Of a stretch of 64,000 nucleotides of DNA, positions 31,421 through 62,138 are shown piece after piece. Location of the stretch: IMG/VR virus record IMGVR_UViG_3300010885_075474, positions 5,016-69,015 of that record. One strand, given 5' to 3'. The stretch's first letter is position 1, and every line of letters starts with the position of its first letter. The notes under the pieces are model-generated. The model searched no databases, was not told the origin of the DNA, and saw nothing but the letters and a program-made list of their open reading frames with translations. Origin of the DNA: a virus. The translations under genes were made by a program, and so were the position numbers.

Positions 31421-31945
31421 TCAATTTTTTTTTTCGTCCAAGCTTGGATCCAGTTCGGTAGCCCCTTGTTCAGGATAAGGCACATTTGGATCTTCAACAG
31501 CGCTTTTTGCAACCGCAGCGGCTACATCATTGGAACTGCCAAGAACTGGCTTACCAACAATGCTGTAAATGCTTTGGCTCCAAAACGACACCGAACTGAA
31601 TATGAATGTCAATAGCGTGCCTACCAGCGGCATTCCCTTGATAGTGGCAAATATTACCGTCACGCCGATACCAATACCAATGGCCTTCAATGGGGCATCA
31701 AGTTTTAGTTTTCGGAACGCAGGAAATAAATTTGCCAAGTAATGCGCAAGGACTGTCAGGATACCAATGATGGCGGCCATCCCTTCCTTGGAGTAGTACC
31801 AAGTAAGATCACCGTCCTTTGGGAACTGGATCGTCGGAAGCGTCACAGTGTTGTTCAGCGTGTCAATGACGACCTGGCAGAACATGTCCGTGACAAAAAG
31901 CAGCATAATGGCTGCGAGCAGGAATAATTTTAAATTGTGTTTCAC
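31421..31945 (-). CDS. Membrane protein: signal peptide plus three TM helices (holin-like)
   Basis: GTG start; ...VTDMFC|Q cleavage; three hydrophobic segments; ends at an A10 run. Confidence 0.65.
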   Translation of the reverse strand: MKHNLKLFLLAAIMLLFVTDMFCQVVIDTLNNTVTLPTIQFPKDGDLTWYYSKEGMAAIIGILTVLAHYLANLFPAFRKLKLDAPLKAIGIGIGVTVIFATIKGMPLVGTLLTFIFSSVSFWSQSIYSIVGKPVLGSSNDVAAAVAKSAVEDPNVPYPEQGATELDPSLDEKKN

Positions 31946-31952
31946 GATGTTT

Positions 31953-32648
31953 TTATGAATTTGTGATGATTTGACGATTGAATGCGGATTTTTGAGCCGC
32001 AAATTGCAATACCTCGTTGTCTGCATTGGATACCCCATACTGCAACATGATGAGGTCAATGAGATTGGTCTGGTCGTGATCGCGCCATTCGTAATTCGTA
32101 GTTGTCGCAGGATCGTAGTTTTCCTGATCGTTTGTCAGGTCAATCGTAACGCCTCGAACTGCATAAGCCGGATATCGCAAATACTCGAGCAAAACGGTCG
32201 GCGAGAGTGTTTTTGGATACAATTGCACCTGGCCACCAGTGAGCGTCCAGTACAAATTGCCTTTTGCAAGACTCGGCCCGCGTACAGAATTAATCAGCGT
32301 ATCGGCTTCTTCAACTTTCTCCAAATAATCAACTTTCTCCAGCGTAACAGTAGGGCCGTCGCCACAATCACCATTTTCCACCTTGTTCCACCATAACCGC
32401 AAGCGGCGACCATAATCCGCGGGCAATGTGACTCGCCCGTTTGTGATCGGAAGTTGCGCCGTAGCCGTAAATTGAAACAAGTCATCCGGCACCGCACCAC
32501 CATCCTCAAACTTTTGCGATCTGAAATCCCATAATACTTGCTCGGCTATCTTTGAACGACGATTGAATTCATCGTTTGTCACATAGCCAGACTTGTCCTT
32601 TGCGATCAAGTCCGATACAAGCAAATATACATCGTTAATCAGGATCAT
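31953..32648 (-). CDS. Tail ring / head-tail adaptor protein
   Basis: VY..V..L..KD.SGYVT..EFN and YLRYP motifs. Confidence 0.75.
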   Translation of the reverse strand: MILINDVYLLVSDLIAKDKSGYVTNDEFNRRSKIAEQVLWDFRSQKFEDGGAVPDDLFQFTATAQLPITNGRVTLPADYGRRLRLWWNKVENGDCGDGPTVTLEKVDYLEKVEEADTLINSVRGPSLAKGNLYWTLTGGQVQLYPKTLSPTVLLEYLRYPAYAVRGVTIDLTNDQENYDPATTTNYEWRDHDQTNLIDLIMLQYGVSNADNEVLQFAAQKSAFNRQIITNS

Positions 32649-35688: not shown

Positions 35689-37215
35689 CTAACCTGGAAT
35701 CTGGTACACAACCTTGTTGGGGCATGCGCCGTGGAATGCCAGTTCAGACACCATGCCGCAGCGGTAGATGTCGTATTCGTTCACTGCAACCGGAGTATAA
35801 CCTCCGTTTCCAGCAGCACCGGCACCACCGAAGTGAGCCAAAACTGCTTTACGGCTGTATGGGCCGAGTTGCTTCCATTCATAGCCAATATAAGCGCGTT
35901 GGCGACCGGTAGTGCGGTCGGTAACATTGCTTAATGGAGCGATGATTGACCAGTTCGTTGCGTTGTAGCCAGAAGCACCGGCACCAACAGCTTTGGAGAA
36001 TTCGTTCAGTTTTTTGAAATAGAACGAAATGCCGCCAATGTGGGCGCCCATGAAACCGAGCCACGCCATGAAGTCCTTCGCATTCGCTGGATCCCAGTCA
36101 GGGAAAGTGATGTCGGCTTTAGACATCATGCCCTGGAACATGGCGGGAGCGATGTTGTTTGCGAAAAACGCTTGAAGCGCCTGCTCGCGAGCAATCCAGA
36201 TACCATAGCCATCCCATGAAATCGCTTCCTGGGCGCCAGTTGCCTGTTGCTCGAAGATGTTTGCAATAACATAGAAGTCGGCAGTGGTGTAGGAGCCCAC
36301 GGTATAAGTGTCGGTGTTGGCAGATGTGGATACCCAGTTGATGAAGCCCTGAGTACCACGAACCGGTACATCATAGCCCACCTGGGTGCCAGTGTCAGTT
36401 ACGTTGGAAATTTGCTGGCCCCACAGAAGCGCACCGGAACGAGCCAAATCAAAACGCTTCATCATGTCCATTTCAATTTCCATGAACACAGAGCCGTCTA
36501 CGTTCTGCTTAAATTGAACGAACGTTTGGTTGGTCAATTCAGAGCCGGTAGAGGCACAGGCTTCTTTCGCGATCTGGAAAGTGTTGGTCCATTTGTACAC
36601 ACGAGGGAGTACGCCAGGAGGCAGGCCAGAACCTTCAGCATAAGCGTTGTCGCTGATGAAGTAGGAATTACCGGCAGTGATGGAGGGCTGGATATCAACA
36701 GTCACGGCCAGAGGAGAAAGCGTCAATCGATGCGGGTTCACCGTGGTGTTCTTCGCTTTGATGTAGGCTTTTTTCCCGTCCGGGAAGTAAATCATTTGGC
36801 CCACACGAGGGTAGGATGCTTGCGCAGCAACACCACCAACAGTGATGGACGGGTTGTACATGCTGGCAGCGGTCAGGGAAACAATCACATCCACACCGGC
36901 GCCACCACCTGAAATGATTGCTTGAATGCCCACCAAGGACTCAATCCAATCTTTTTCATAGTGACCGGTTGTGGGCGCAGAAACGCCACGGTTGAAATCT
37001 GGTCCCATCGCGTCAAGCATTTGCAGGAACGTAGGCGGCTGGCCATGGCGTTCAAACAAAAGACGCATGATGGAAAATGGATCGTAGTCATACAAGGATG
37101 ATACGACAGGTTGCGCGGCTACACCACCGCCAACGGTTGAAAGGTTATTATTGGGTGCGCCGCTTGGAAAAAGGCCAGGGGCCATCTGAACGTCACCAGG
37201 GGATACGAATGGCAT
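35689..37215 (-). CDS. Major capsid protein
   Basis: 508 aa after portal and scaffold; GSELTN, GTQGFI motifs; codon usage typical of high expression. Confidence 0.8.
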   Translation of the reverse strand: MPFVSPGDVQMAPGLFPSGAPNNNLSTVGGGVAAQPVVSSLYDYDPFSIMRLLFERHGQPPTFLQMLDAMGPDFNRGVSAPTTGHYEKDWIESLVGIQAIISGGGAGVDVIVSLTAASMYNPSITVGGVAAQASYPRVGQMIYFPDGKKAYIKAKNTTVNPHRLTLSPLAVTVDIQPSITAGNSYFISDNAYAEGSGLPPGVLPRVYKWTNTFQIAKEACASTGSELTNQTFVQFKQNVDGSVFMEIEMDMMKRFDLARSGALLWGQQISNVTDTGTQVGYDVPVRGTQGFINWVSTSANTDTYTVGSYTTADFYVIANIFEQQATGAQEAISWDGYGIWIAREQALQAFFANNIAPAMFQGMMSKADITFPDWDPANAKDFMAWLGFMGAHIGGISFYFKKLNEFSKAVGAGASGYNATNWSIIAPLSNVTDRTTGRQRAYIGYEWKQLGPYSRKAVLAHFGGAGAAGNGGYTPVAVNEYDIYRCGMVSELAFHGACPNKVVYQIPG

Positions 37216-38313: not shown

Positions 38314-40740
38314 TTAAGATATTGGTAAAGTTTCCGGTTTTTCGCCTTCCGCTTCTTCTTCTTCTTCCGCGTCCATTTGTAACTTGGCTTTCAGCGTTAT
38401 AAGTTCCACGTTTCGCTGATGCTGCTTTTGAGCATTTTCGTCATCTACCTTGCCTTGGAGAACAATCAGTTTGCCCTTGGCTTCCGCTTTCATGGCCTCG
38501 CCTTGGGCTTTTGCCTGCTCCATCGCTACGCCCGCTTGTGCTTGCGCCTGGGATTGCGTGACCATGGCTTCTTGCTGTTGTTGCGCCTGCAATTGCTGGT
38601 TTTTTTGAACGGCCCGGGCCAGATAGAATTGCGCCATTTCCATTTGATCTTGGTCAATCATATTGGCTACAACCAAGTAATCCGCCTCAGTAATCAATTG
38701 GTTCTGGCGATTTTGAAGCAATGAATTCATAATTTGCTGCTTCAGATTGTCGTTTGCCAGCGGCTTAATCACCACGTCATAATCATGCACCGAGTATTCA
38801 GGCAAAAGCCGGATCTGCTTCACCACGTTACTGCCAGGCATAATGCGCGTGAATTCCAATTCGCCATGCGCAGACACAATCTGATATCGGCGAGCGATCT
38901 GCAAACAGATTTGTTGATACAACGATGTGGCCGCGGTATAAAGACCGGACAGCGCCCGGTTGCTTGATGCTTCAAAGTTTTGAGCAACCCCATTCAGCAC
39001 ATTCGCCGCCTGGGCAGACCCGTCGCTCATTTCATTGGTTCCTGATACCATGCGCAGGCTGTTCAGGTTCATTTCAATTTCAGCCTGAATAGTCTGCATA
39101 AATTGCAGGGTAGTATTAGGGAGTTCCATGATCGGCGCTCCTTTGTTTGCTGCACCTGGATCATAATCACCTCGATCTGCATAGATTAAATAGCCTCGGA
39201 TCGCATAAATATCCAGCAAATCCGGCAACGTCACATTCATGCCGCCCAAGTCCAAGGCATCTTCCATAGATGCAATATTGATCGCAATATTTGGAGGAGG
39301 AGGCATTTTCGACATAACACTACGACGCCGCAAAATTGCCAATTGGAGATCGTCAATAATCGCCACGGCACTGTCGGTAATGGATGGGTTATTCAGCGCA
39401 TAAATCTGCACCGGTAAAAGCGCTTTCATGGCGCCCGGGCTGCCATCGCGCACCGTAATCACATCGCGGCCCGCAGCATACACATAATTCGTGCCCACAA
39501 TCCATTTTGCAGTGTATACATATTGGATCGGATAATCTCGTACAACTTTTCCCATGTTGAGATTGCGCTTGTTGAGAGTCGAACCTCGCTCCACGCGATC
39601 AAACAAGCGCCCGCCATTGGATCCAATACCAACCACATAGCGCTCCACATCCAACCCGATCACATAAAAGGTCATCACTTGGATCCGGCTATTGTCATAT
39701 GGGCCACCATTTCGGTATCTGGTTTGAAATAAATCCCGTTGCCCGACAGATTGGTAAGTATCCTGATATTTCATTCCTGAATTTCCACCGTAGCCAGCAT
39801 AGGTGTTGGCAATTTCCTGAAGCGTTCTTTCGTCGAAGCCGGATTCGGCCCGGATGCCCGCAATGGTCATGTCTTTTACAAACGCCACAAAATCTGAATC
39901 TCGGCAATCTGCATACATGGAGGAGCGGAAAATTAATCGCGCAGGATCAACATACTCAATAATCTGTCTGCCGGTTCCGTAGTCGTGATAAATATGCGTG
40001 GCAGCAATGGCGCCATCTACCAAGTCCTCGCATATCTGGCGCTTAATGACGGGATCGTAACGCGATAAATCAAACGAGTTTTTCAGCGCCTCGGTCAATT
40101 CAATTTCCGCTTGCAGGGAATATCCGCCCAATTTTTCGATGACATCAATATCATCTGGCGAAAACATCTCGGCGTTTTGGGAGATATTGGTGGGCGCCAT
40201 TCCTGATTCAGCAAAAAATTGCTGCGCTTTTGGATCGGCTGCAAGACGGTCGCGCAGATAGTTCTGCTTCTTTTTATTGATCGCAAGGCCATCCACTGCC
40301 GTTACCTGGGGCTGGAATCGTAGGCTCATAATCCGGTCAATGATGCGCTCCCGGAATGCAGACCAAATCCGCACATTGTCATAGGATATATTCAGGAGAG
40401 ATTTTGCATTGTCGGCACTTGGAACGGCACCCCATTTGCCGGGATCGGCGCTATATTGAAAATCAAGTATTTCTCTATACTTGTCAACAGGCTGCATACC
40501 GCGGGCGTAGGCTCGGAGGAGCGCAAGCGGGCGAGAGTTTGCCGCATAATACCCATTTGGGCCAATGACGGTTTGGCCTGCCGAGTACAGTCCGTAAATG
40601 TACCTGGCCCATAACAGCATTTGCTGATTGTACTCGGCTTCATCTTCAGGAAAGATTGCCGATGGCGTGTCAATTTTACCCTTCTCCATTTGGGTTTTAA
40701 AATTGTCCACTCCAAAAGCCTTATTGTATTGCTCCTCCAT
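38314..40740 (-). CDS. Portal protein
   Basis: LRAYARGMQP..KY, EYVDPA, SG.NE..DG, Gln-rich C-terminal barrel; follows terminase. Confidence 0.88.
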   Translation of the reverse strand: MEEQYNKAFGVDNFKTQMEKGKIDTPSAIFPEDEAEYNQQMLLWARYIYGLYSAGQTVIGPNGYYAANSRPLALLRAYARGMQPVDKYREILDFQYSADPGKWGAVPSADNAKSLLNISYDNVRIWSAFRERIIDRIMSLRFQPQVTAVDGLAINKKKQNYLRDRLAADPKAQQFFAESGMAPTNISQNAEMFSPDDIDVIEKLGGYSLQAEIELTEALKNSFDLSRYDPVIKRQICEDLVDGAIAATHIYHDYGTGRQIIEYVDPARLIFRSSMYADCRDSDFVAFVKDMTIAGIRAESGFDERTLQEIANTYAGYGGNSGMKYQDTYQSVGQRDLFQTRYRNGGPYDNSRIQVMTFYVIGLDVERYVVGIGSNGGRLFDRVERGSTLNKRNLNMGKVVRDYPIQYVYTAKWIVGTNYVYAAGRDVITVRDGSPGAMKALLPVQIYALNNPSITDSAVAIIDDLQLAILRRRSVMSKMPPPPNIAINIASMEDALDLGGMNVTLPDLLDIYAIRGYLIYADRGDYDPGAANKGAPIMELPNTTLQFMQTIQAEIEMNLNSLRMVSGTNEMSDGSAQAANVLNGVAQNFEASSNRALSGLYTAATSLYQQICLQIARRYQIVSAHGELEFTRIMPGSNVVKQIRLLPEYSVHDYDVVIKPLANDNLKQQIMNSLLQNRQNQLITEADYLVVANMIDQDQMEMAQFYLARAVQKNQQLQAQQQQEAMVTQSQAQAQAGVAMEQAKAQGEAMKAEAKGKLIVLQGKVDDENAQKQHQRNVELITLKAKLQMDAEEEEEAEGEKPETLPIS

Positions 40741-42784
40741 ACTGTTTCATTCTAAATGGCGACATGAATTTTCTTGAATTACGCCGTTTTTGTTTTTCCG
40801 TTTTGATAAACATGGATTGCGCATAAAGCAGCGCCCATCCATAGGCAACAGTTAAATCTCGCTTTCCCCGGTTTTGCGGAGTGCCCGTAAACTGCTTGTG
40901 GTCCTCCAAGAGATCCAGATGCGTTTGCGCTGCTACTTTGATGGCCACTGCCGATTTAAGTTCCCGCACATAGGCAGTGATCGCTTCAGACGACGCTGGT
41001 GCGCCATAATCCACCGCTCTTACTTGCTTGTGAATTGAAACCTTCATATTTGGATTAAACGCGAGGTATTTGTGATAGGACTTATGCTCGCAGTAAGTTA
41101 TAAGACCTGGTTTTGCTTTCTCGATCAGCATATCCACTCCGTAGTAGATTGCAGTCATCAAACAATCCTCATAAAAATCATAGGGATTATCAGGTCGGTA
41201 TCGGTATGTCAAACAGCACCGGTCCGTAATCATTTTTTCGCGAATCGGATTCGGCCCCCAAGCATCGGCAGCCGGATCTTCAACCGTTGGATCAAACATG
41301 CGATGAATTGCCATCGCCCCATAAGAGCCACCGCCATCTGGCTTATAATCGTCTACCGGATCCACGCCCATCGCAAATTTACCCTTATTTCCTGGTGATG
41401 CGTAACCATTCAGAAAATCTCGGTTATTCGGAATATCAGGATGCCCGGATATTGACCAGCGGCCATTATCGCTTGGTCGCCATTCCACGTCCGAGCCAAA
41501 GCCATTTTTCCACACTAAATTCCCGCGCACGGGCTTATTCAGATACGAGATACCGAGCATATTATTGCGCTGCAATTTGCCAATTTGCTCATCAAGCAAA
41601 TGCGGCAATAACACACAATCTCGATCAGGCACCGCCAAGGCATCTTCTACACTGGCCGGAAACTTCCGCTTATACGATACTATCTCGGAGGCCAGGCCCG
41701 CACGGCGCATTTGAGCAATCGTTTCTTCGCGCCGTTTTGTTTCTTCTTCTACCCTATGGCGCCCAAACTGATCCACCGGAGCCGTCAGCCAATAGCCGCG
41801 AAAAACGCGCAGCAATCCGCTTATGGTCTGGTTGTTTTTATTTAGGCTTAACGGATTGGACGCATCCCATAATTTGCGCATTTCGTCAATCGATTCGCCC
41901 TCGTCCATATCTTCGACGGTCGTTGTCAATGCTGCTTTCCCTATGATCCGGCGCCCATTCTCGAGCGATAAACAAAGTTTTACGACCGGCCACTGTTCCG
42001 ACCATCTCATTTTGGATGCCCGTATTTTACTCGGTTCGTCACCGTGAAAAAAACGGAGGCGCTTACCATCGTAAGCGCCGAACAGGGTAGGCTTGAAATC
42101 AATCCTGCTCCTCAATTCCTGAATTTGCTCCAAGTGCGTGTTTTCCGCAGTCGTGGAGCGATATCTAAAGATTAACTCCTCTTTAGGCATGTCGGTGCCC
42201 GTAGATTTTGGCCGAAAGAAATAGACCATATCACGGTTCGACATCACTACTCGGTCAAAGTTTTCCTGGGCGTCTACATCGGATTTATTCATCATCCCGA
42301 ACCACGATGAGCGGTATCTTGTAATAAGATCCCATCCGTAGCAGAGCGTTTTTTCCGTATCGCCAATACGGCGGGGCTTCACATCGAATATTCCATAATA
42401 GTTCGGATCGTTTTCAACATGATCCAATATTTGAAAGTATTCAATCGCTTCATAGCGGAAATCGGGATAATCACCGGATTCAGCCCGCCAATAGTTAAAA
42501 AACAAATACGCGCAGCCCGTAAAATAAACCGGTTCCCCGCCAATCAGCATCCACACGCCATTCCAGCGCCGATGCCATTCTCGCCGAATGAATTCTTCTT
42601 CTTTTTTCGGCTCCCACTTTGCAAGATCCTTTGGAACATCAATACGTCGGAATATCTGTTGCGATTTTGGCAGATCGTAATTCATCATTTCGCTTCGCGG
42701 AGGCATATCCGGCAAACGAATTGGAATTTCAACCCCTTTTATTTCACAAAAGTTATTCTTAGTAAACGTCTTGATGTATTCCAT
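40721..42784 (-). CDS. terL: Terminase large subunit
   Basis: KPRRIGDT (Walker A), FHGDE (Walker B), RKFP...EDA, MGVDP, RDLTVA nuclease motifs. Confidence 0.92.
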   Translation of the reverse strand: MEYIKTFTKNNFCEIKGVEIPIRLPDMPPRSEMMNYDLPKSQQIFRRIDVPKDLAKWEPKKEEEFIRREWHRRWNGVWMLIGGEPVYFTGCAYLFFNYWRAESGDYPDFRYEAIEYFQILDHVENDPNYYGIFDVKPRRIGDTEKTLCYGWDLITRYRSSWFGMMNKSDVDAQENFDRVVMSNRDMVYFFRPKSTGTDMPKEELIFRYRSTTAENTHLEQIQELRSRIDFKPTLFGAYDGKRLRFFHGDEPSKIRASKMRWSEQWPVVKLCLSLENGRRIIGKAALTTTVEDMDEGESIDEMRKLWDASNPLSLNKNNQTISGLLRVFRGYWLTAPVDQFGRHRVEEETKRREETIAQMRRAGLASEIVSYKRKFPASVEDALAVPDRDCVLLPHLLDEQIGKLQRNNMLGISYLNKPVRGNLVWKNGFGSDVEWRPSDNGRWSISGHPDIPNNRDFLNGYASPGNKGKFAMGVDPVDDYKPDGGGSYGAMAIHRMFDPTVEDPAADAWGPNPIREKMITDRCCLTYRYRPDNPYDFYEDCLMTAIYYGVDMLIEKAKPGLITYCEHKSYHKYLAFNPNMKVSIHKQVRAVDYGAPASSEAITAYVRELKSAVAIKVAAQTHLDLLEDHKQFTGTPQNRGKRDLTVAYGWALLYAQSMFIKTEKQKRRNSRKFMSPFRMKQYGGAIQ

Positions 42785-42853: not shown

Positions 42854-44455
42854 CTACTGCCGAAGTATTGTTGCGTTTGTTATCACAATTCCATTTGCGG
42901 CAAGGGCGGTGCCAAATTGAGCAAAAAGAGCAAGCGTTTTTGTTGTTGTGGTATTTATACCTGTATTATCTGAAAGCACTGGGTTTGAAAATGGAAACCA
43001 CCCACCAAAAAACACGGGATCTACTAAAGCCGTTTGCATTTGTGCAAACCCTTGCGCTCGCATTGTTCCAGAGGCACCCGCTGCACTAACTCTTATTGAA
43101 AAGTTTGCTGTAAATGTTCGAAATGCGCCGCCAGAAATTGGGCGCAAACCCGCTGTTGCTGAATAAATCGTATCGGTTCCGTAAACCAATCCTACTCGAA
43201 GATTGCCAGGCGTAGTTGCATCCGTTTGAATATAACCTTCAGCCATGATTCGCAGCGTTTGTCCAGAAGACAACGAGTTGGCGGGAATTGAAACACTTGT
43301 TAATGTTGACACTGCCGTTGTGTTGTTAATCGTTGTGTTGGATGTTGCACTAAGCAAAGTTTGGTCAAAAGGGTAGTAAGTAGCGCCTGTTCCAGATCCT
43401 TCAAATTTATTCAAGTCTGTATTATGGCGAATTACGCCCGCTGCTGCTGTGGGGCGCTGCGCCGATGTTCCCGTGGGCAATCTTATTGCACCAGTTCCCG
43501 CCACATCAAGGCGATATAAAGGGTTTGTATTGCCTATCCCTAAGTTCCCCGCCTTATTCAATCTCATCCGTTCGGCTGCCGTTGCTGTGCCGTCGGAGGT
43601 CCAGAACGATATATTTCCTGAATAAAATGTGCTTGCTGTTGAGTCGCCCCGAAATTGGATTGTTGCCGCTTCTCTAAAAGCAGAACTGTAAAACGCTTGC
43701 GCATGCAATGCACCTAAATAATCGTAAGTGGTTGTACAATTACCACTTAAAACGCTTGCGCCACCTCTTGAACATATAATAGACCCCCCCTCTACAACGT
43801 TGGATGCTACATTATTACCACTTCGTAGGTATAATGCTCCTGCAGAGGTAGTTGCTTGCAAACCTGCATATCCGCCATTGTTCCCAGACGTATATGTGTT
43901 TAGATTAAACCATGCATTTGTGTTGTCATAAGTAAAATTTCCGCTATTAGAAAGCGAATTGACTCCCGAAAAATAAGGTATTCGATTCGTTGCTCCAGAA
44001 AAAGGGAATGACGGCGCCCATGCTGATCCAGTCCATCCTAAGTAGTTTCCAGCACTTGCGCCTGCCTGGCTAATTTTTGACATCCACACGGATCCATTTG
44101 CAAGACGTGTGGATGTAATCGCTGAAACAGCCAAACGGGAACTGTCAATCGTCGCAGCGGCAATTTTTGAATTTGTCACTGCATTTGCGTTGATCGTCCA
44201 TGACAATCCGCCGCCCGAAACAGTCACGTCCGTGTAGTTGCCGTCCGTAACCGATCCGGATTGGTCGGTTCCCCAAACAACGGACGTGTCGCCCGACATC
44301 TTTATAACTTGGCCATTCGTACCAGGTGCCAGATATTTTACAAATCCGTTTCGATAAAACATCGCAAACGGCTTGGTTGGTTGAAGCCGAGGATTTCCCG
44401 TTTGGGAAAAACAGAAAATCGGAAGAAAAAGGAGGAAAAAGAGGATTTTTTTCAT
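42854..44455 (-). CDS. Tail-fibre-like protein with N-terminal signal peptide
   Basis: MKKILFFLLFLPIFCFS|Q; AVTNSKIA repeats; ERMRL...GNLGIG...RLDV. Confidence 0.75.
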   Translation of the reverse strand: MKKILFFLLFLPIFCFSQTGNPRLQPTKPFAMFYRNGFVKYLAPGTNGQVIKMSGDTSVVWGTDQSGSVTDGNYTDVTVSGGGLSWTINANAVTNSKIAAATIDSSRLAVSAITSTRLANGSVWMSKISQAGASAGNYLGWTGSAWAPSFPFSGATNRIPYFSGVNSLSNSGNFTYDNTNAWFNLNTYTSGNNGGYAGLQATTSAGALYLRSGNNVASNVVEGGSIICSRGGASVLSGNCTTTYDYLGALHAQAFYSSAFREAATIQFRGDSTASTFYSGNISFWTSDGTATAAERMRLNKAGNLGIGNTNPLYRLDVAGTGAIRLPTGTSAQRPTAAAGVIRHNTDLNKFEGSGTGATYYPFDQTLLSATSNTTINNTTAVSTLTSVSIPANSLSSGQTLRIMAEGYIQTDATTPGNLRVGLVYGTDTIYSATAGLRPISGGAFRTFTANFSIRVSAAGASGTMRAQGFAQMQTALVDPVFFGGWFPFSNPVLSDNTGINTTTTKTLALFAQFGTALAANGIVITNATILRQ

Positions 44456-47400
44456 AATGCAAGGTTGTATTTTAGGGCAAAGTAGGATTTCATTGCAGAA
44501 ATTTGCGATGCCGTTAAGATTCGATTATAAATAACCACTTCGCATATTTCGCCAACAAAGCTGAAATTGCCCGTGTTAGTTCGTCCAATAAAAAAGTTAC
44601 TGGTGTTGGTTGTGGATAGCGTATTGCTTTGAGTATTGGCTGCATATGGGCCCAGCGGACCAACGTACGCCCGGGCTCGAAGTGCCGCAGTTGCATTCTC
44701 GGGATCCGTCGTAAACGCGAGCATCCCAAAATTACTTTCGGTATACCCATTTAGCGAATTTGAATTTGAAACGACTAAATTACTGCCATTAGAAATTAAA
44801 TTCGCTACAACTCCATTCCCAGGATTACGCTGGTAATACATCCCGTATCCTCGTTGCGCACTACCAACCGTGCCACCAATAATGCCGGATAGCGTACCGT
44901 TTACAAGAATAGAATCAGCCATTTTCACGATAACAAATACCGTGGCGCTATCCTTTTGCAATACAGACATATCGGAGCTATTCCGAACAGCCCATTTTGC
45001 CGTGGTCGTATCAGCCAGCGTAGTCGAAAACTTGAACGATGGTCTGAAATTGAGCGCTACTTTCTTCCAAGTTGGACCTCGGTTGACCAATGGAGCAGTA
45101 AAATTCCGATTATTCCCAGACCAGTCGTGCAGCGTATCCACTTGTTGCCCATTTGTGAATTTCGTTTCTTTTCCGGCATCAAGCCATACGTAAGGACTCA
45201 AACTTAGTGGGTACTCTAATGCCGCCTTGTAGTTTGCCGGGCACTGAAATAACAGTAGCGTGTCATTTCGCAAGGATCCTGCTGATGAATATGACCCCCA
45301 AATGGTATCCAATTCAACCACATCACCAAGAAGATTCTGGCAATACATCTGACTGTTAAGGGCAACCGTCTTGCTTGATATTGTTGGCGACTCTATGCGA
45401 AACGATACATTCTTACCTGTTTGCCAACCTAACAATTTCTGCAATACCGTGGTATTGGTCGTCGCCTTCTTAATGACAAAACTGGTGTAGTTAAAATTCA
45501 TTGCTATGGTATCATACCCGGTCGCAACAAATCGTGAATAGTCGTAATTAGGGATGATGTTTGATCGCCCTGTAATGCTTGCCCATATTCGGCGCCCTAA
45601 ATTAACTTGTGATTGCGCATCAATGTGCGAACTATCTGATACAACCACGGCATCGCTGTTGTACACGCAATTTGTCCAATCAAGACCATCGGTATTCAAT
45701 TGATTGTACAAATAATTGGCAGTCTGACCATCCGGAATTTCGCCAGGCCAAATCGTTTCGCCCGAAACTAATCCGGTTTTGATCTGCACAGCCAGCACCC
45801 TGGTACTTTTTTGCCATTTAGATAAATTCCGAAATTGATTCATTACCGTAAACCAATCTTGGGTATATTGGCGCTGGGTGCGCCCCGTCCATCCGTCTGT
45901 CTCGCCTTGATACCAGACGAGAACATCAATTCGAGGAATTCCGGATGCAAATACTCGCGCGCTGATTGTATCCCATTGTGTACCTGTCGGCGAAATCCAG
46001 TTTGCTATGGCTCGCCCACCCAAAGCAGCGTAAACAACGCGGGTTAAGCGACCGTCTTGTTCTGCTTGCTGGCCAATCGTGGTGCCCCACCAAGCAGTTT
46101 TGGTCGTAAGGCCATTCATCCAATACCAGTTCGTTTTGAAAGGACGGGCCCAACTTTCTATTGTTGGATTCCAAATGCACTGAAATTTCGACGGAACCGT
46201 GTCGGCTGGATTGCTTGTCGGGCCACACCGAGGCGTAGCATTACTTTGTCCGGTTATAACAATGTATACGGGTTGTTGCGCCGAAAACGTGCCTTGAATT
46301 CGGTCGTAATAACCGATTTTCTTCCAAACACCATACACATATTGGTAGGTATTATATATTCCAGTGCCATCATTTTCGGATAAATTGACCCAGGTCCGTA
46401 GCGTATCTGCGCCAGTCGGTGTTGCAGCCTTAATTATCCAACCAGAATTTCCAACACCACCCGCTGCCGATGCAGGAACCCAAGCGCTGCCATTCCATTG
46501 AGGCACCTGGTTGGGCGCAGCGCCACTTTGGCCAAGTTTCGACAACGTGATACCACCCGCCAAATCGCTGTTATTGATTGATAGCGGCTTGATCTTGGTG
46601 CTGTCTATGGAATTTACCGCAATTTTAATGCCGGTTACAGCATTTGAAGCAATTCGCGTTGCAGTAATCGCGCTGGCAGCCAGTTTAGAACTATCCGACA
46701 CAGCGCCCGCCGCCAAATTCCGGGCCCAAACCTGGCCGGTAGCGATATTGGTAGCCTGAATTGCATTCGCGCCAACTTTGGTACTATCCGATACGGAGCC
46801 CGCTGCCAATTTTGTGCTTGATACAGCACCAACGGCAATAGTTGTGGCCAATGACCCTGCCGCTTTAGTGACATCACCAGTCAATGCAGTCGTAGAAGCA
46901 ACTTTCAAAGTACCGGTAACATTACTGCCCGAAAGATCAATTGGATTGGCAGTAATAACTTGGCTTGATCGGCTCAAATAATTTTCGCCCGCCAAACTTA
47001 CATCCCCGGTATTCGTGCCGGATACAGTGGCGTTACCAGGCACGTCCAATGTTTTACCACCACCACTTAGCATCAAGCTTGCACCGGATGTGCTGATTGT
47101 TGCTCCATTCACCGAAGTGGGCGTAATGGCGCCCAGTGAGATCGTAAGCATTGGCGTACTCGTTGGCGTAGCAACTGTTCCGGTTATTCCGTTGGCGTTG
47201 TTGAAACCAAATGAAGTAACGGTGCCTGTTCCGCCACCGCCGCCACTACCCGGGCAATCGTCAGCCAAAGCCGCTACCGCAGCATATGTTTGATTGGTGA
47301 CAATGTTGATCGCAGGAGGCGTTTTATAGGCAATTACCGCCTTGCCTGCCAAGTTTGGGGTGATACTTCCGATCAATACGCGATTCACGACCAGCGGAAC

Positions 47401-47673
47401 CGTGGTGTTATTACCGTTTACCGTTTCGACAGCGCTCACGGCAAACAGTTTGTTGCAAGATCGCCGTACAATTGTATCGGGTTTTTCGGTGCAAAAGTAA
47501 TTGATCAGCGGATTACCATACTGAACAATCGCGGATCCATCTGCTGCCGTCCGAACCAAGCGGATTTCGTCAACATTAAAGCCCCGCGCTCCCGTGCTGG
47601 TATTGAGCGAAATGACCTGCGCATTGAGCGCAAAAGCCAAAACGGAAAAAAGGAAAATAAGTGCTTGTTTCAT
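44452..47673 (-). CDS. Tail-fibre/spike-like protein with signal peptide, SGNH (SASA) O-acetylesterase and LamG-like C-terminus
   Basis: MKQALIFLFSVLAFALNA|Q; 10-aa repeats; GQSNA, WYQGETD, DSSH; WLDA...GEICEVVIYNR. Confidence 0.8.
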   Translation of the reverse strand: MKQALIFLFSVLAFALNAQVISLNTSTGARGFNVDEIRLVRTAADGSAIVQYGNPLINYFCTEKPDTIVRRSCNKLFAVSAVETVNGNNTTVPLVVNRVLIGSITPNLAGKAVIAYKTPPAINIVTNQTYAAVAALADDCPGSGGGGGTGTVTSFGFNNANGITGTVATPTSTPMLTISLGAITPTSVNGATISTSGASLMLSGGGKTLDVPGNATVSGTNTGDVSLAGENYLSRSSQVITANPIDLSGSNVTGTLKVASTTALTGDVTKAAGSLATTIAVGAVSSTKLAAGSVSDSTKVGANAIQATNIATGQVWARNLAAGAVSDSSKLAASAITATRIASNAVTGIKIAVNSIDSTKIKPLSINNSDLAGGITLSKLGQSGAAPNQVPQWNGSAWVPASAAGGVGNSGWIIKAATPTGADTLRTWVNLSENDGTGIYNTYQYVYGVWKKIGYYDRIQGTFSAQQPVYIVITGQSNATPRCGPTSNPADTVPSKFQCIWNPTIESWARPFKTNWYWMNGLTTKTAWWGTTIGQQAEQDGRLTRVVYAALGGRAIANWISPTGTQWDTISARVFASGIPRIDVLVWYQGETDGWTGRTQRQYTQDWFTVMNQFRNLSKWQKSTRVLAVQIKTGLVSGETIWPGEIPDGQTANYLYNQLNTDGLDWTNCVYNSDAVVVSDSSHIDAQSQVNLGRRIWASITGRSNIIPNYDYSRFVATGYDTIAMNFNYTSFVIKKATTNTTVLQKLLGWQTGKNVSFRIESPTISSKTVALNSQMYCQNLLGDVVELDTIWGSYSSAGSLRNDTLLLFQCPANYKAALEYPLSLSPYVWLDAGKETKFTNGQQVDTLHDWSGNNRNFTAPLVNRGPTWKKVALNFRPSFKFSTTLADTTTAKWAVRNSSDMSVLQKDSATVFVIVKMADSILVNGTLSGIIGGTVGSAQRGYGMYYQRNPGNGVVANLISNGSNLVVSNSNSLNGYTESNFGMLAFTTDPENATAALRARAYVGPLGPYAANTQSNTLSTTNTSNFFIGRTNTGNFSFVGEICEVVIYNRILTASQISAMKSYFALKYNLAL

Positions 47674-48344
47674 TGATTTTTTTTGTTTGCATTGAAATCC
47701 CTGGCCATTTTTTCCGCCCATCCGCCCCTTTCTTCGCTTGCAGTCGCCGCTTCCAGCGCTGCCTGGGCCGTCCGAGAGTGCGGGAATAGCCTTGTTTCAT
47801 AATCCTGCACTTTGGCAGTCAATTTCTCAATAGTTTCAATGGCTTTTTGCTTGCCAATCATGTGCTTTTCAGGATCCGCCACGTCATCTAATCGCATTTG
47901 CAAGTAGGTCTGCATCTCCTGCATTCCCACCTTCAGCGAAATCCAAGTTGTAAACACGTCGTTGTTCTCAGTCTGCATGTACTCCATGATGATTTTGGAG
48001 TACCACCAATGATTTTTGACAATCATTTCCCGCAACCGATCCTTCGCAGGAATGCCCACCATCTCGGCGCACAATTCGATTCTGCGATCATAGTTCTCCT
48101 CGTCATAAAACGGCGAATCCCGAGAGCAAAATAGAATGACAAAATTCACCATTCTATTCAAGTCCGAAAGCGATGGCGGCTTTTCCCCCATCGCTTCAAA
48201 TATATCCTTCGGCACCTTATACAGCCCAGGACGCTTCAGTAACTTTGTGTAAAAATCAAAAGTGTGCTTACCATCTGGAACTGCAAACGGATTAAATTCA
48301 AGCGCATCAAAAGCGCTGTAATCGGTTCCCTCAATTTTTTTCAT
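47670..48344 (-). CDS. Hypothetical protein (possible terminase small subunit)
   Basis: Helical; DSPF motif and coiled coil; the small-subunit call rests on position only. Confidence 0.5.
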   Translation of the reverse strand: MKKIEGTDYSAFDALEFNPFAVPDGKHTFDFYTKLLKRPGLYKVPKDIFEAMGEKPPSLSDLNRMVNFVILFCSRDSPFYDEENYDRRIELCAEMVGIPAKDRLREMIVKNHWWYSKIIMEYMQTENNDVFTTWISLKVGMQEMQTYLQMRLDDVADPEKHMIGKQKAIETIEKLTAKVQDYETRLFPHSRTAQAALEAATASEERGGWAEKMARDFNANKKNQ

Positions 48345-48345
48345 A

Positions 48346-49107
48346 CTACAAGATTACATCTTCGGTCATGGCGTAGGCATTTATAAAATGACGGAATGTG
48401 GCGTAGAGCGGGCGAGCGCGATTTTTCCCCCAAGCCTGATGCTCGTCGTACTCAATCCTGGCCGCTGCACCCTTCGTCAAAAAGACTCGTTTCGACAACA
48501 AAGTTATATCAAAATCTTTACTTTCCGGAAAAAGCAGATAGTTTTTGACCAAACAACCCTCTTTTTTCACAATTCCTTTCCTTTCGTCAACACCAAACTC
48601 ATTGGCCTTCCCTTCAAAATAATCACCCCGCTCGTCGTCGTCCATTTCCAAAAACACAGCGCCGTTGAGCGGATATATTTCTTCGCCATCAATGCGGGCA
48701 ATCAGATTGTCATACTTTACAATCATATACCCATCAAACACCAAATGCTTTTGCGACAGCCCCACATGCTTAATCAAAACCTGGTCTCCATCCTGAATTT
48801 CAATCGGCACATCAAAATATGTTGTCCGTTGTGTCAACCTGGACGTATATTTCTGGTCGGTAGGGCCAAAATCCCGCGCATTCATATACGGATGAATCAA
48901 ATCACCCAGATAATAATTGCTTTTGGGAGCCTTAACCACTTTCGCTACCCTGCTTTTGAACAGATCCGCCTCCTCGTAATTCCGGGAAACAACAATGCCC
49001 GACCTGGTATCATGCACCAGATCGCTGCCAAGTTCAATCAGCACATATCCGGGCGCTACGCTAAACCGCAATATGTCGATAAATGGAGAGTTTGTTGCTT
49101 CTGACAT
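48346..49107 (-). CDS. Tandem double GroES-like co-chaperonin
   Basis: YVLIE...TRSGIVV...AKVV...GDQVL...VKYDNLIA, then PLNGAVFLE...GIV. Confidence 0.7.
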   Translation of the reverse strand: MSEATNSPFIDILRFSVAPGYVLIELGSDLVHDTRSGIVVSRNYEEADLFKSRVAKVVKAPKSNYYLGDLIHPYMNARDFGPTDQKYTSRLTQRTTYFDVPIEIQDGDQVLIKHVGLSQKHLVFDGYMIVKYDNLIARIDGEEIYPLNGAVFLEMDDDERGDYFEGKANEFGVDERKGIVKKEGCLVKNYLLFPESKDFDITLLSKRVFLTKGAAARIEYDEHQAWGKNRARPLYATFRHFINAYAMTEDVIL

Positions 49108-49606
49108 AGTTTTTCAATATTTTTCCATACTTTTTATTCGTCGCATACCCGCAGCGCTGCAATCCATCCGCCCACTTCTCCCAATCCAGCCCATATTTCT
49201 CCCGCATCCAGGAATATCGCCGGTGCATCAAAACCAAGGCGTAGTCATAAAACGATTTTTCCTCGCTTTCATACACCACAAACTTGTCGTTCGGCAAATC
49301 GTCGGCATATTCCACAAAAGGATCTGGGCCCAGCGCCTTCACGCCGAACATATTATGATAAACGCTGGATAATTCAGATCGCCCGCAATCGCTTTCAATC
49401 GCCGCCTGCGCGAGACAAATCTCCAGCGGAATTCCATACCGCTGCTCAATCAAATTTGCCATCCTGGCATGCTTCATGAAGAATTCAGCCTTTTCGCCAT
49501 ATACGCATGGTACTGAAATATCAATCCGCTTTAATTCATGCGCCATTGGCGCCTCAATGTTGCTGGAAAATGCCAGCAAAAATAGTGCAATGAAAAAACC
49601 TTTCAT
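49061..49606 (-). CDS. GH73 glucosaminidase/muramidase with N-terminal signal (secreted endolysin)
   Basis: AQAAIES..G.S, HNMFGVK, GYATNKKY; hydrophobic N-terminus. Confidence 0.88.
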   Translation of the reverse strand: MKGFFIALFLLAFSSNIEAPMAHELKRIDISVPCVYGEKAEFFMKHARMANLIEQRYGIPLEICLAQAAIESDCGRSELSSVYHNMFGVKALGPDPFVEYADDLPNDKFVVYESEEKSFYDYALVLMHRRYSWMREKYGLDWEKWADGLQRCGYATNKKYGKILKNYVRSNKLSIYRHIAV

Positions 49607-49665
49607 CTGCTTTTGTTTTGGTGAAAAAATAAGCCGGGCAAGCATCGCTCACCCGGCCCCATTCC

Positions 49666-50406
49666 CTACTTCGCCCAAGGCAGTTTGGCGATTTTCGCTC
49701 CGCCAGAGCTGTACTCATACACCGGCGTCTGGTTGTACTCCGGCGCAATTCCCTTTTTGACTTCTTCAAGCAATTTCATCCAAGTCGTAACGCCCGCTTC
49801 CTTCACTGCAACTTTGAAAGCCTGCGTAAATACGCCGCCGCCTTCATTTTCATAACTTACTTGCGCATCCGTGCAAGCAGACAGCCCGCAATAGGCAATC
49901 CGCCCCGGGATCGGGTAGGTAGTCGGCTTCACCTTCACACTCTTTGGCAATACCAGGCACCGAACTGCATGATACCCGCCACCCAACGGATGACCGGCCA
50001 TGCGGCTGTTGCTTTGGCTGAAACAAGTGTCGGAGATCGTGATAATATTCACCTGGGCCTTGAACTTCCGCCATTCCACCGGCAATTCATAATCCCAAAG
50101 GATCTGATCGTGCATACACCGGCATGTTGCCCGTCCACTTTGCGTGTCTTGGTAGGAGCCATGCCCGCTATGATACCACAGCAGCGTATCTCCAGGCTTC
50201 ATAATGCTTGCAAACCGGCGCAAGTTGTTTATCACTTCACCCCGGGTGCAGTTTTCGTTGAATAACTCGACATACTCACAGCCGCTTTCGTAGCACAAGA
50301 TGTCCTTGACACCCAGCGCATCCTTCACGCAGCCGCGCAAATCGTTTCCAGGCCCATAATAATTGGCATCGTACTTGTCGGATGCCGTGTTGAGAACGTA
50401 TAGCAT
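49666..50406 (-). CDS. Metacaspase (peptidase C14)
   Basis: LRGCVKDA, YHSGHG, ISDTCFS, SAC..Q.SYE, GVFT, QTP. Confidence 0.9.
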   Translation of the reverse strand: MLYVLNTASDKYDANYYGPGNDLRGCVKDALGVKDILCYESGCEYVELFNENCTRGEVINNLRRFASIMKPGDTLLWYHSGHGSYQDTQSGRATCRCMHDQILWDYELPVEWRKFKAQVNIITISDTCFSQSNSRMAGHPLGGGYHAVRCLVLPKSVKVKPTTYPIPGRIAYCGLSACTDAQVSYENEGGGVFTQAFKVAVKEAGVTTWMKLLEEVKKGIAPEYNQTPVYEYSSGGAKIAKLPWAK

Positions 50407-50410
50407 AAAA

Positions 50411-51142
50411 TCAGATTTTAATGACACCACCATTGCGATGCCACGAATTTCGCGCTTCATCGCTAAAAGAAAGCAATTTGCCCCGAACTTTCCACACATA
50501 TTTCGTATTTTCCATGATTTTCGGGCCGTATGTGGCGCGAACATAGGACGAATAGGCATTATGCGGATTATCAAAAAACGGCGCCCCTTTCATATAATTC
50601 TTCCAATACACCCGGCCATCAACAACTTGCGACTCCAATCCTTCGATCACCGCAATATCATCCGGCCAAGGAAACCACTCCACCAATTCAATATTCAGCA
50701 GTTGCACCATGAAACGAGCATATTCCACCCGCTTATGCGAGCCAATCATGCTTTTTAGATGATTTCGCTTCATATTATTCCGAACCGCTTCCGACAAATC
50801 CGCCAGATACCCGATTTTGCCATCCCTGGACTTATAAACCATCTCCAGCGCAGGCAAATAATCACCAGGCGAACCATAATGACTCGGCTGCCGAGCCTCA
50901 TAACGCCCATACAGATACACATCAAAGCACAAACGCCCTGAATCCATCGTATTTTGCCGCAATTCGATATGCTCTTTCGGAATTTTCCCAAACAATCGAT
51001 TGAATTCATTCAGCGCAATAGGCCGAAACGTGGTGAATTCGCCCGCTTGCTGATGCAAACGAACTTGCCGGTTCGCAAGCGACCAATATACTGCCCGCTC
51101 TTTATACGGGAATATCAAATTTGCACGACTTAAGCCTGCCAT
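50411..51142 (-). CDS. Hypothetical protein
   Basis: 243-aa ORF in operon. Confidence 0.65.
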   Translation of the reverse strand: MAGLSRANLIFPYKERAVYWSLANRQVRLHQQAGEFTTFRPIALNEFNRLFGKIPKEHIELRQNTMDSGRLCFDVYLYGRYEARQPSHYGSPGDYLPALEMVYKSRDGKIGYLADLSEAVRNNMKRNHLKSMIGSHKRVEYARFMVQLLNIELVEWFPWPDDIAVIEGLESQVVDGRVYWKNYMKGAPFFDNPHNAYSSYVRATYGPKIMENTKYVWKVRGKLLSFSDEARNSWHRNGGVIKI

Positions 51143-52362: not shown

Positions 52363-53969
52363 CTACGAATTTGGAAGAACAACTTTGCGCGTTTCGATCC
52401 ATTCCGCCGCTTCTTCCGCCGCATTATAAACCGCCGCCTTGATCGCACTCAAACTATCCAAAACGCCAATCTCAATCGCATCGCACAACTCAAACTGACT
52501 CGAATCGCCATCCTCGGCCAGCACTTTGAGCATCCGCTCATCCAGCAACACCGACGACAACTCACCCTCATTCTGCGCAACAATCCCGCAGCAATCCTCA
52601 ATAACACCGCTATCAACCCCGCCATTTTCAAGCAAACGACGGAACACAGCAAACGACACATCGTCCAACCCCGACAACTCATCATGCTCCCCTTCTCCCA
52701 GGCTCATACCCGCCCGAGCAATGCTCAATCCCGCACCCGGCAACACCCCTTCCTTCAAAGCCGCAAAAGAAGCCATATACGCATCCTCCACAACCTCCTT
52801 CAGCCAGTTCGTCGCACCCGTCGTGATGATCGGCACCTTGATTATCCCAATCCGCTGCTCCATATTCGCCAAACGACCCTTCAACTTCGCCCGCTTCTCC
52901 TCATTATCCGCACCATCCAACATCACCCGAATCACATCCTTATGCGCAGCCAAATCGCCAACACCCTCCTTCCCAATAAACACCGACCCCTTCATATCAA
53001 CAATGACCTTCGCCGCTTCACCAAAATCCCCCACGCCCTTGAAATCCGCCAACATCGCTCCATCCCGCTTCACCAAATTCTTACCCCCAACAACCGCCCG
53101 CAAATCGCTCAATACCGCAGCATCTTCAGCCCGCACACAATACACCGGCAGCACAGGACCACCACCAGCCCGAACCCGCTTTACCAACGTGCCAAGCGCA
53201 CTTCCTTCCAAATTCAAACTCACAACCACCAACGGCCTTCCGTCCTTCTCAAACTCCATCACCCAGGCCTGCATCATAGGCGCCACATCCTTCCAATCCT
53301 TCGCCTCGTCAATAATCAGCACATAAGGATTCTCAATAGACGACTTTCCAAACTTGCCCCCAATAAAACTTTCATGCATGGACCACCCTTCAGCAAAAAA
53401 CCCTCCAGGCGCCGCGCACTCAATGCCGATACACTGTCATCAAACTCCACCTCAACCGTGCCATCCACCCCAATATCAAATACCAACTTCGCCACCATCT
53501 CCCCAATAACAGGATCATTGTTACCCGCAAGCGTGGCTACCTTCGCCAACAAATCATAACCATAGGCATCATTCGTTACCTTGATCGCCATAGCATCCAA
53601 CGCATCCAGCATACGCGCCGCAACCCAACGAATCCGACTCCCCATCCCACGATGGCTCCCCGCCATGGCATTCAAACCCCAGCGATAAAACGCACCCAAC
53701 AAAATAGTGAACGTCGTCGTCGCATCGCCCGCAGCCCGCCGCACAACAGCAGCCCGCTGCCGAACCCGCGTAACCAGATTGTTCGCCATGTCGTCCTGCA
53801 CAGGCTGATAATGCTCCAGCACTTTCATGCCATCCCGGAACGCAACCGGCGCCGTGCCATCAAATAAATGCACATTCGCCCCGTAAGGACCGGCAGTGCT
53901 GCCTACCAAATCAACTATCTTGTCCATCCCGACAAGATACTGATCCTCAATTTCGATGATTTTATTCAT
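52363..53969 (-). CDS. groEL: Divergent GroEL-like chaperonin split by a -1 frameshift near 53380-53403
   Basis: STAGPYGANV, RDG, AGDATTT, EG(F)...FI...ENPYVLI, VEDA...A.KEGVLPGAG, GVLD, collinear across two overlapping ORFs. Confidence 0.85.
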
Positions 53970-61556: not shown

Positions 61557-62138
61557 ATGAAAAACATCGGTTTTATTTTCGCACTCCTGCTTTGTGCAGC
61601 ATTTTGCCGGGCGCAGAATCCGTTCCATCCAGTAGTTCCGAAGCCTATTGATCAAAAGCCCGTAATGGGCATCATGGATGATCTCACTCCCCGCGGAGAT
61701 GCCGGGATTGGCTACTTGATGAATCCCCTGCGATTCGACTCCGTTGCGCCTACCTATGATCGCGGCATCGTGTATGCGGTCAAATGGCCAAATACGGGCG
61801 CCCAAGCGATTGTCTTCAATCCAAGTGCAGAACAAGGTTTTATTTTCGTGCCGCACGCCAAAGAAGGCGTCATTTTTAAAGCGGGCAATGCCAATTTTAA
61901 GGCCCAGATCGGAGATGGCTATTTGGCGGAATTTTCCGGCAAAGCAATCACCAATCGCCCTTATGACACCATGAAGTTGATGGAAGGGATAGCGCTATTC
62001 TATTGGAAAGAAAGCCTGGTCGCCATGTGGGATCCAGAATCGGAACAGATCAGCGTGTTTGACAACCGATACCCTGATGGGTATTTCATTTACTGCAACT
62101 GGCTTACCCAACCATCAGTTTATGGAAACGCCAATTAG
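61557..62138 (+). CDS. Secreted protein with signal peptide
   Basis: MKNIGFIFALLLCAAFCRA|Q. Confidence 0.7.
   Translation: MKNIGFIFALLLCAAFCRAQNPFHPVVPKPIDQKPVMGIMDDLTPRGDAGIGYLMNPLRFDSVAPTYDRGIVYAVKWPNTGAQAIVFNPSAEQGFIFVPHAKEGVIFKAGNANFKAQIGDGYLAEFSGKAITNRPYDTMKLMEGIALFYWKESLVAMWDPESEQISVFDNRYPDGYFIYCNWLTQPSVYGNAN

Follow-up and report, generated by a model that had tools for sequence, protein, structure and literature searches.

Why should a tailed phage, whose particles are by the textbook account assembled wholly in the cytoplasm, encode fibre-type proteins that begin with secretion signals? The question is raised by two adjacent genes, P0001 and P0002, in a 64,000-nt stretch of viral DNA (the window; bases 5016-69015 of the 69,015-nt linear IMG/VR record IMGVR_UViG_3300010885_075474, for which the CheckV completeness estimate is 63%, so that the record may be incomplete). 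A first-pass annotation, made from the letters alone, had read a cleavable leader followed by Gln at the N-terminus of both products, and the analysis reported here suggests that these host-recognition proteins probably mature outside the cytoplasm. The two genes and their parts are as follows, with positions counted within the window.

44452..47673, minus strand: P0001, 1073 amino acids (aa); leader, lineage-specific N-terminal module, Gly-rich linker, repeat shaft, SASA esterase, beta-rich domain and LamG-like domain.
47620..47673, minus strand: P0001 leader, residues 1-18; predicted signal peptidase I (SPase I) site after A18, with Gln19 at +1.
47224..47619, minus strand: mature N-terminal module of P0001, residues 19-150; candidate virion-docking domain, from comparison with the homologues P0015, L009 and L013 described below.
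45586..46260, minus strand: SASA carbohydrate esterase, P0001 residues 472-696; Pfam PF03629, E 4.6e-14, 53 bits against a cut-off of 24.8.
44497..44874, minus strand: Concanavalin-A-like/LamG domain, P0001 residues 934-1059; Pfam PF13385 (Laminin_G_3), marginal at 29.7 bits against a cut-off of 27.6.
42854..44455, minus strand: P0002, 533 aa; leader, conserved N-terminus, repeat shaft, ERMR..GNLGIG neck and predicted trimeric jelly-roll tip.
44405..44455, minus strand: P0002 leader, residues 1-17; predicted SPase I site after S17, with Gln18 at +1.
42857..43372, minus strand: P0002 tip, residues 362-533; predicted jelly-roll, TNF-like or lectin-like, from AF2, VIA and Foldseek.

The pair lies in a late operon on the minus strand, in the order 224-aa gene (47670-48344), P0001, P0002, terL, portal and capsid-type protein. 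The ATG of both P0001 and P0002 overlaps the preceding stop codon as ATGA, which fits translational coupling, and a gap of 69 nt separates the stop of P0002 from the start of terL, which lies downstream; the description of two coupled genes just upstream of terL was thus borne out.

The leader of P0001, MKQALIFLFSVLAFALNA, has 18 residues and that of P0002, MKKILFFLLFLPIFCFS, has 17, and each is followed by Gln. Leaders were called from rule-based N-terminal features (a basic n-region ahead of a hydrophobic core some 7-15 residues long, with -3 and -1 occupied by small neutral residues) together with conservation across homologues. By these rules both proteins have Sec/SPase I signal peptides with Gln at +1: P0001 has K2, an uncharged run of 13 residues and L/A at -3/-1, and P0002 has K2 and K3, an uncharged run of 14 residues and C/S at -3/-1. 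Leader-like N-termini were found in five of the 51 listed window genes, namely P0001, P0002, the genes at 31421-31945 and 61557-62138, and an endolysin gene. The 27 leaders tabulated in this work are each of 15-23 residues with uncharged runs of 11-17, which is the length of signal peptides and too short for transmembrane anchors. In 26 of them the -1 residue is A, S or C, the sole exception being a mis-parsed row, and Gln is at +1 in all 27, which together make up all but one of the 28 leader-bearing proteins assembled (the leader of phi19:3 gp090 is without Gln).

When P0002 was aligned with three full-length relatives, only M1 and F14 were invariant within the leader, and an invariant block (Q18, G20-R23 and T27-P29, in 4/4 proteins) began exactly at the predicted cleavage site. 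The leaders of P0001 and its homologue P0015 differ only by exchanges between uncharged, mostly hydrophobic residues, so that the leader form is kept, and this form is retained in every complete close homologue. Sec export of P0001 and P0002, as predicted from their sequences, is well supported, because the leader form and the Gln are conserved while the sequence drifts and because strict conservation starts at the cleavage site. The first-pass reading of both N-termini is thereby confirmed, by rule-based features and by conservation. Whether the true starts might lie downstream of the hydrophobic segment was also checked: the next Met of P0002 is M32, and a start there would delete residues that are invariant in 4/4 aligned homologues, which excludes it. 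An in-frame ATG is present upstream of P0001 at 47721, and its use would merely extend the basic n-region, with the leader still present.

The predicted destination of the exported proteins is the periplasm, since neither a sorting domain of the type IX secretion system (T9SS) nor a lipobox was found. A search for the T9SS C-terminal sorting domain in NCBIfam, a library which we take to contain models of this domain, gave no families at E <= 0.1 in P0001, P0002 or four homologues. The lipoprotein (signal peptidase II) route was rejected: a lipobox has Cys at its end and a small residue just before it, and the P0001 leader is without Cys, while C15 of P0002 is preceded by I-F. An action of the fibres at the cell surface, which the first-pass annotation had offered as one outcome of export, is therefore not supported. 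As set out in PMC5837995 and PMC10653852, a Sec/SPase I leader followed by a Gln that glutaminyl cyclase converts to pyroglutamate constitutes the Q-rule of Bacteroidota; the pair resembles these substrates, for which the rule is described as one of cellular exported proteins.

Both proteins have a repeat shaft. The family phrog_26466 matches the shafts of P0001 (residues 306-383) and P0002, and the 10-aa repeats reported earlier are recovered as a self-identity peak at lag 10 (0.18 and 0.16 for the two proteins). Esterase and LamG-like domains had been ascribed to the pair as a whole; both are present, and both are confined to P0001. The esterase motifs GQSN (at 475) and DSSH (at 680), which we take to bear the catalytic Ser and the Asp/His, are retained in 3/3 homologues. 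Esterase fibres of Salmonella podophages, phages that deacetylate the Vi capsule, are presumably ordinary tail proteins assembled in the cytoplasm. These tail fibres or spikes (e.g. the 'tail fiber protein' of PP856720.1) contain a SASA/SGNH-type esterase within a receptor-binding protein, as P0001 does, and residues 466-725 of P0001 are 29% identical to a tail-fibre region in 35 Salmonella phage records. In mature P0001 the motif D[ST][AILVMT], which we assume to be the Bacteroidota O-glycosylation sequon, occurs 13 times against 3.6 expected (none of 2000 shuffles reached 13); two P0001 homologues contain 11 and 12 copies, and eight alignment columns carry the motif in all three. This excess hints at a periplasmic adaptation of the P0001 family and not at a general rule. 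An ESM Atlas search with the N-terminal module of P0001 gave scores of 0.80 or less and was uninformative.

P0002 has no Pfam family match. Its neck motif, ERMRLNKAGNLGIG, occupies residues 295-308, where ERMR..GN.GIG had been noticed before. The AF2 monomer, built from 16 sequences, has a mean pLDDT (predicted local distance difference test) of 57, with block means of 64-89 over residues 361-533 and poor values outside the tip. VIA-align placed the tip on 2wq4_B, a TNF-like trimeric lectin (Z 8.5, rmsd 3.0, 121 residues aligned), a borderline match in that, by the tool's own note, an arrangement that is simply common can also give a Z of about 8. With Foldseek the best match was 5ly8, the carbohydrate-binding module of a phage Dit protein (E 4.8e-5), and Bdellovibrio fibre tips and lectins were also found. 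The trimer prediction that had been suggested as a check was run for the tip: three copies of residues 280-533 were predicted to form an intertwined homotrimer with a score of 0.97, against 0.01 for the best of three controls, on a benchmark in which that score was reached by 20 of 30 one-chain pair structures and by 1 of 23 single-chain structures. Contacts agreed to at least 97% between runs, with a partner pLDDT of at least 95. Solved trimeric lectins of similar fold may contribute to this pass, through likeness or through the model's memory of them.

The P0002-type tip is common to P0006-8, P0015, P0079, P0081, P0083 and P0092 and is found on five different N-termini; all six complete proteins that carry it have a leader plus Gln. 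Among the 12 database homologues of P0002, six (P0003, 4, 5, 7, 8 and 13) have a leader plus Gln, five are signal-less and cover only generic shaft motifs (7-24% of the query), and the remaining one, P0006, which comes from a 6-kb contig, has its start within a sialidase domain.

The same pair, in the same order and with a leader plus Gln on both proteins, was found in two other viral contexts. One (L009/L012) is a phage with an unrelated terminase (phrog_2) and portal, and in the other (L013) the pair is placed among small membrane proteins, directly upstream of an Amidase_2 endolysin gene; beyond the pair, no gene of either locus matches the window at E < 1e-3. Among the P0001-type proteins, identity of 55-60% sets in near residue 247 (L009) or 379 (L013) and runs on from there, and the N-terminal module of P0001 is replaced by unrelated sequence in both, whereas P0002-type proteins are conserved across these unrelated viruses from the first mature residue. 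In P0015 (1319 aa, on a 69.7-kb contig), which matches P0001 at 73% identity over residues 1-260, a P0001-type leader and N-terminal module precede a GDSL esterase and a tip of the P0002 type. As judged from sequence, such a modular build, with a kept N-terminal module and a swapped C-terminal enzyme or tip, is typical of receptor-binding proteins. The shuffling suggests that P0001 probably docks through its own lineage-specific N-terminal module, and that P0002 may be carried by the part of P0001 that is conserved, because the N-terminus of P0002 is kept across unrelated viruses.

Searches of other kinds added few loci. An IMG/VR search with P0002 alone gave no relative, and an alignment-based search gave L009 and a weak match, L010. 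A search for relatives by terL gave only loci of 28-30% identity (L017-L020) without upstream fibre genes; these have one signal-less 971-aa fibre-like gene downstream, so that the loci have no bearing on the leaders. A scan of a genome collection returned a single weak match, a chromosomal Saprospiraceae protein. This protein (L011 6912-8834, from a metagenome-assembled genome) has a leader plus Gln, long Ser/Thr-rich tandem repeats, and the fibre motif W.G..W / PG..GQVLKM in common with P0002, a hint that phage fibres and surface proteins of the host exchange parts. In the unrelated phage that bears the cassette, a third leader-plus-Gln protein (L009 1538-2470) is encoded right behind the terminase gene.

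Leaders followed by Gln are also found in cultured Bacteroidota phages. In phi18:3, which has a terL, portal and capsid module in synteny with that of the window, gp085-087 lie upstream of the lysis cassette and have a leader plus Gln in 3/3, and GenBank (NC_021794.1) lists them as structural or tail proteins with the note 'experimental MS/MS proteomics analysis' (MS/MS, tandem mass spectrometry). In phi10:1 (Assiduviridae), all of gp091-095 (5/5) begin with a leader plus Gln, and four of these, gp091-094, carry the same note (NC_021802.1); the annotated proteins of the two phages thus have it in 7/7. It is likewise present in the complete fibre-region genes of phi46:3 (4/4), in gp31-34 of Ingeline (Duneviridae; 4/4) and in four of the six fibre-region genes of phi19:3, where one further leader is without Gln (gp090) and one gene has none. 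The phi18:3 and phi10:1 proteins are like the window pair in their leaders of 15-20 residues followed by Gln, in forming a block beside lysis genes, in their fibre, pectate-lyase or enzyme bodies, and in the re-use of N-terminal modules with different C-termini; they differ in carrying lyases, where the pair has an esterase with LamG, and have no detectable sequence similarity to the pair. The searched literature gave no discussion of their leaders.

The leader and first 40-50 mature residues of phi18:3 gp087 recur with 59-89% identity in the Cellulophaga phages Nekkels, phi10:1, phi19:1 and Ingeline, which belong to three further families, and this N-terminal module (L004 6376-6570, hits H56-H77) tracks host genus rather than phage lineage. 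The body of gp087 shares 30-32% identity with tail proteins of phi14:2 and phi4:1, which are also annotated from mass spectrometry and have signal-less N-termini, so that versions with and without a leader appear to fill the same virion role. The joining of the window fibres to virions at lysis is supported only indirectly, because it is by analogy with the seven leader-bearing, MS/MS-annotated proteins of phi18:3 and phi10:1 that a place on the particle is suggested.

The reading that we favour is that the two products are trimeric receptor-binding appendages of a podophage of Bacteroidota, Sec-exported, periplasmically matured and docking at lysis; we regard it as evenly poised between right and wrong. 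In it both proteins would be pre-proteins, P0001 of an esterase-bearing fibre and P0002 of a lectin-tipped fibre, an assignment that we hold with the same divided confidence. The data themselves show the anatomy and conservation of the leaders, the fibre and enzyme domains, a predicted trimer and a mobile cassette; from these we infer that the proteins are exported, cleaved, capped with pyroglutamate and docked at lysis, in the following course. Late in infection the unfolded pre-proteins would pass the inner membrane via SecYEG, SPase I would cleave after A18 of P0001 and S17 of P0002, and the exposed Gln would be cyclised by the host glutaminyl cyclase, as the Q-rule of Bacteroidota predicts. 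The fibres would then fold and trimerise in the periplasm, where the P0001 family might also be O-glycosylated, while heads and tails would be assembled in the cytoplasm. Once the holin and the leader-bearing endolysin had broken the envelope, the compartments would mix and the fibres could dock on the particles. Fibres are able to join finished particles in extracts, as is known classically for T4.

Several observations weigh against this reading. The fibres of crAss001 (gp21-26, among 15 proteins inspected) are without leaders, and so are those of closer structural relatives, an elemovirus, Panino and MW202828, in which 57 coding sequences were checked and only three small membrane proteins were flagged, none with a +1 Gln. 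BLASTP of P0001 and P0002 against the fibre genes of phi18:3, Panino, an elemovirus and MW202828 gave nothing below E 0.08, so that the analogy with phi18:3 rests on position and architecture. The MS/MS notes are silent on whether the virion copies have leaders, and sugar-binding proteins could co-purify through debris or vesicles. The D[ST][AILVMT] excess of P0001 is missing in P0002 (2 against 1.6 expected), and the motif is under-represented in phi18:3 gp085-087 (1 each against about 3). The N-terminus of P0002 is kept across unrelated viruses and the gp087-type N-terminus in four virus families in all, which is odd for a lineage-specific virion anchor. Finally, a signal-less fibre could lie outside the incomplete record.

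The explanation that survives best beside the favoured one is that the proteins are exported and act off the virion, as soluble or envelope-associated sugar-modifying and sugar-binding factors released at lysis. Such factors might remove or cover the receptors of the dying cell and of its debris, help progeny to escape by loosening capsule or matrix, or serve superinfection exclusion. The conserved N-termini of P0002 and gp087-type proteins would fit a host-directed role better than a virion-directed one, the cassette is beside lysis genes in the window (the endolysin), at L013 (Amidase_2 immediately downstream) and likewise in phi18:3, phi10:1 and Ingeline, and the esterase motifs are retained in P0001. 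Exported sugar-binders could, as said, be carried along in samples for mass spectrometry, and Q-rule proteins of Porphyromonas gingivalis phages have been proposed (PMC10367356) to modify the envelope of the host. However, leader-bearing analogues are annotated from MS/MS as structural in two cultured phages, and long repeat shafts, a (predicted) trimeric tip and swapped N-terminal modules (P0001 and P0015) are typical of virion receptor-binding proteins. Furthermore, with no outer-membrane sorting signal found, the surface would not be reachable before lysis, and no further fibre gene is recognised in the window. The earlier statement that the window has no signal-less fibre holds by Pfam and PHROGs and is qualified by two signal-less virion-module open reading frames (ORFs) without a family, of 563 and 418 aa. 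On balance we consider an off-virion role rather unlikely.

If the hydrophobic N-terminus were instead left uncleaved, it might be an inner-membrane tether, a plug in the tail or a membrane-active tip, and the fibres would mature in the cytoplasm. This would agree with the fact that, to our knowledge, the parts of tailed phages are otherwise all made in the cytoplasm. The uncharged runs of 11-17 residues in the 27 leaders are, however, too short for a stable transmembrane helix, A, S or C at -1 and Gln at +1 match substrates of SPase I and glutaminyl cyclase with no rationale for an anchor, and conservation begins only at the Gln, all of which makes this explanation quite improbable. More improbable still is that the genes are a host-derived adhesin/enzyme pair carried as passengers with no role in the phage cycle. 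The chromosomal Saprospiraceae protein with leader and Gln shares W.G..W / PG..GQVLKM, and 17 of 64 matches to the N-terminal region of P0001 have a leader plus Gln (as judged by eye), some of them possibly bacterial; against this, the ATGA coupling makes the two genes part of the late operon next to terL, the pair is met with in three viral contexts, and its modules are in common with phage-type shafts (phrog_26466). Mis-called starts or chance hydrophobic N-termini can be practically dismissed: nothing was found in their favour, apart from the existence of the alternative upstream ATG of P0001 at 47721, which still yields a leader, and they are contradicted by the ATGA overlaps at both starts, by the homologue-invariant residues that downstream starts would delete, and by the leader form in every complete close homologue.

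How the favoured reading relates to known systems can be judged from proteins that share parts of it. Five Q-rule genes of P. gingivalis prophages, for whose products of unknown function PMC10367356 proposes a modification of the host envelope, do not encode virion fibres. These genes are also the nearest that the searched portions of the literature offer, in which no description of signal peptides on tailed-phage fibres was found. The g3p of filamentous phages is, like the pair, a receptor-binding virion pre-protein with a Sec signal sequence (PMC8310372). Inoviruses, in contrast, extrude through the envelope and have all their coat proteins membrane-inserted, whereas the window virus, with terminase, portal and capsid, should assemble cytoplasmically. 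The T4 antiholin RI (PMC8385771) and secreted endolysins are late proteins with cleavable signal peptides; their roles are in lysis, and they are not host-recognition parts.

With somewhat less confidence than for the window pair, we suggest tentatively that many Bacteroidota tailed phages build their particles in two compartments, with heads and tails made in the cytoplasm and with receptor-binding fibres or spikes Sec-exported, pyroglutamate-capped, sometimes O-glycosylated, and joined at lysis. If host-recognition parts are indeed routed through Sec, tailed-phage assembly would gain a second compartment, and phage fibres could acquire periplasmic modifications of the host, such as pyroglutamate, disulfides and O-glycans. 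Docking would then be independent of lineage-specific cytoplasmic assembly, so that leader-bearing fibre cassettes could move between unrelated viruses of one host group, which would explain their mobility between unrelated phages of one host phylum. In practical terms, recombinant fibres or depolymerases of Bacteroidota phages may misfold when expressed without export, and a leader plus Gln on fibre genes can serve to mark the host phylum of uncultured phages. Cultured Cellulophaga systems allow the idea to be put to a direct test.

The neighbouring genes that place the pair within the virus are as follows.

47670..48344, minus strand: 224-aa gene whose stop overlaps the start of P0001; no Pfam or PHROG match.
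40721..42784, minus strand: large terminase gene terL, from tblastn against annotated terL of Cellulophaga, Flavobacterium and Maribacter phages (25-28% identity).
38314-40740, minus strand: portal, in the late operon after terL.
35689-37215, minus strand: capsid-type protein, phrog_13704.
49061..49645, minus strand: Glucosaminidase-family endolysin with an N-terminal leader without +1 Gln; Pfam PF01832, E 1.6e-24.
31421..31945, minus strand: 174-aa virion-module protein with a GTG start 7 nt past the upstream stop; leader, +1 Gln, then long hydrophobic segments.

The nearest matches of terL (25-28% identity) are the Cellulophaga phages phi18:3, phi13:2, phi46:3 and phi19:3 (Pachyviridae), together with Flavobacterium elemoviruses, Maribacter phage Panino and an uncultured podovirus. 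These relatives have in common a gene order that runs from a GroES-like gene to terL, portal and capsid and on to a protein of about 1500 aa and a giant virion protein; the window also encodes GroEL, a 1534-aa protein (phrog_14478) and a 3226-aa protein. Most of the neighbouring virion ORFs have no match in Pfam or PHROGs.

Two further genes had been grouped with the fibres into one system. The secreted muramidase does have a leader; it is an ordinary Sec-type Glucosaminidase endolysin, which shows that the phage sends a lysis enzyme through Sec too and need not belong with the fibres. The signal-bearing membrane protein at 31421 was seen as described, with its leader, its +1 Gln and its long hydrophobic segments; it has no family match, PHROG included, and may be holin-like or membrane-inserting because those segments come after the leader. 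A fourth leader-plus-Gln protein, of about 193 aa when read from an internal ATG, is encoded in the plus-strand block at 61557-62138 and has no Pfam or PHROG match. The signal-less 563-aa virion-module protein (32645-34336, minus strand) consists of two internal repeats of about 250 aa and has 16 Cys with a Cys-rich C-terminus; it has no Pfam, PHROG or PDB-sequence match and is possibly a head decoration or an unrecognised appendage. Directly next to the leader-bearing endolysin is a gene (49666-50574, minus strand) whose 302-aa product contains a caspase domain (Peptidase_C14, E 3.1e-17). GroEL is split in two overlapping ORFs at 52363-53969 on the minus strand, of which 53316-53969 corresponds to positions 20-180 of phrog_5725 and 52363-53379 to positions 216-532, suggesting a frameshift, a sequencing error or programmed slippage.

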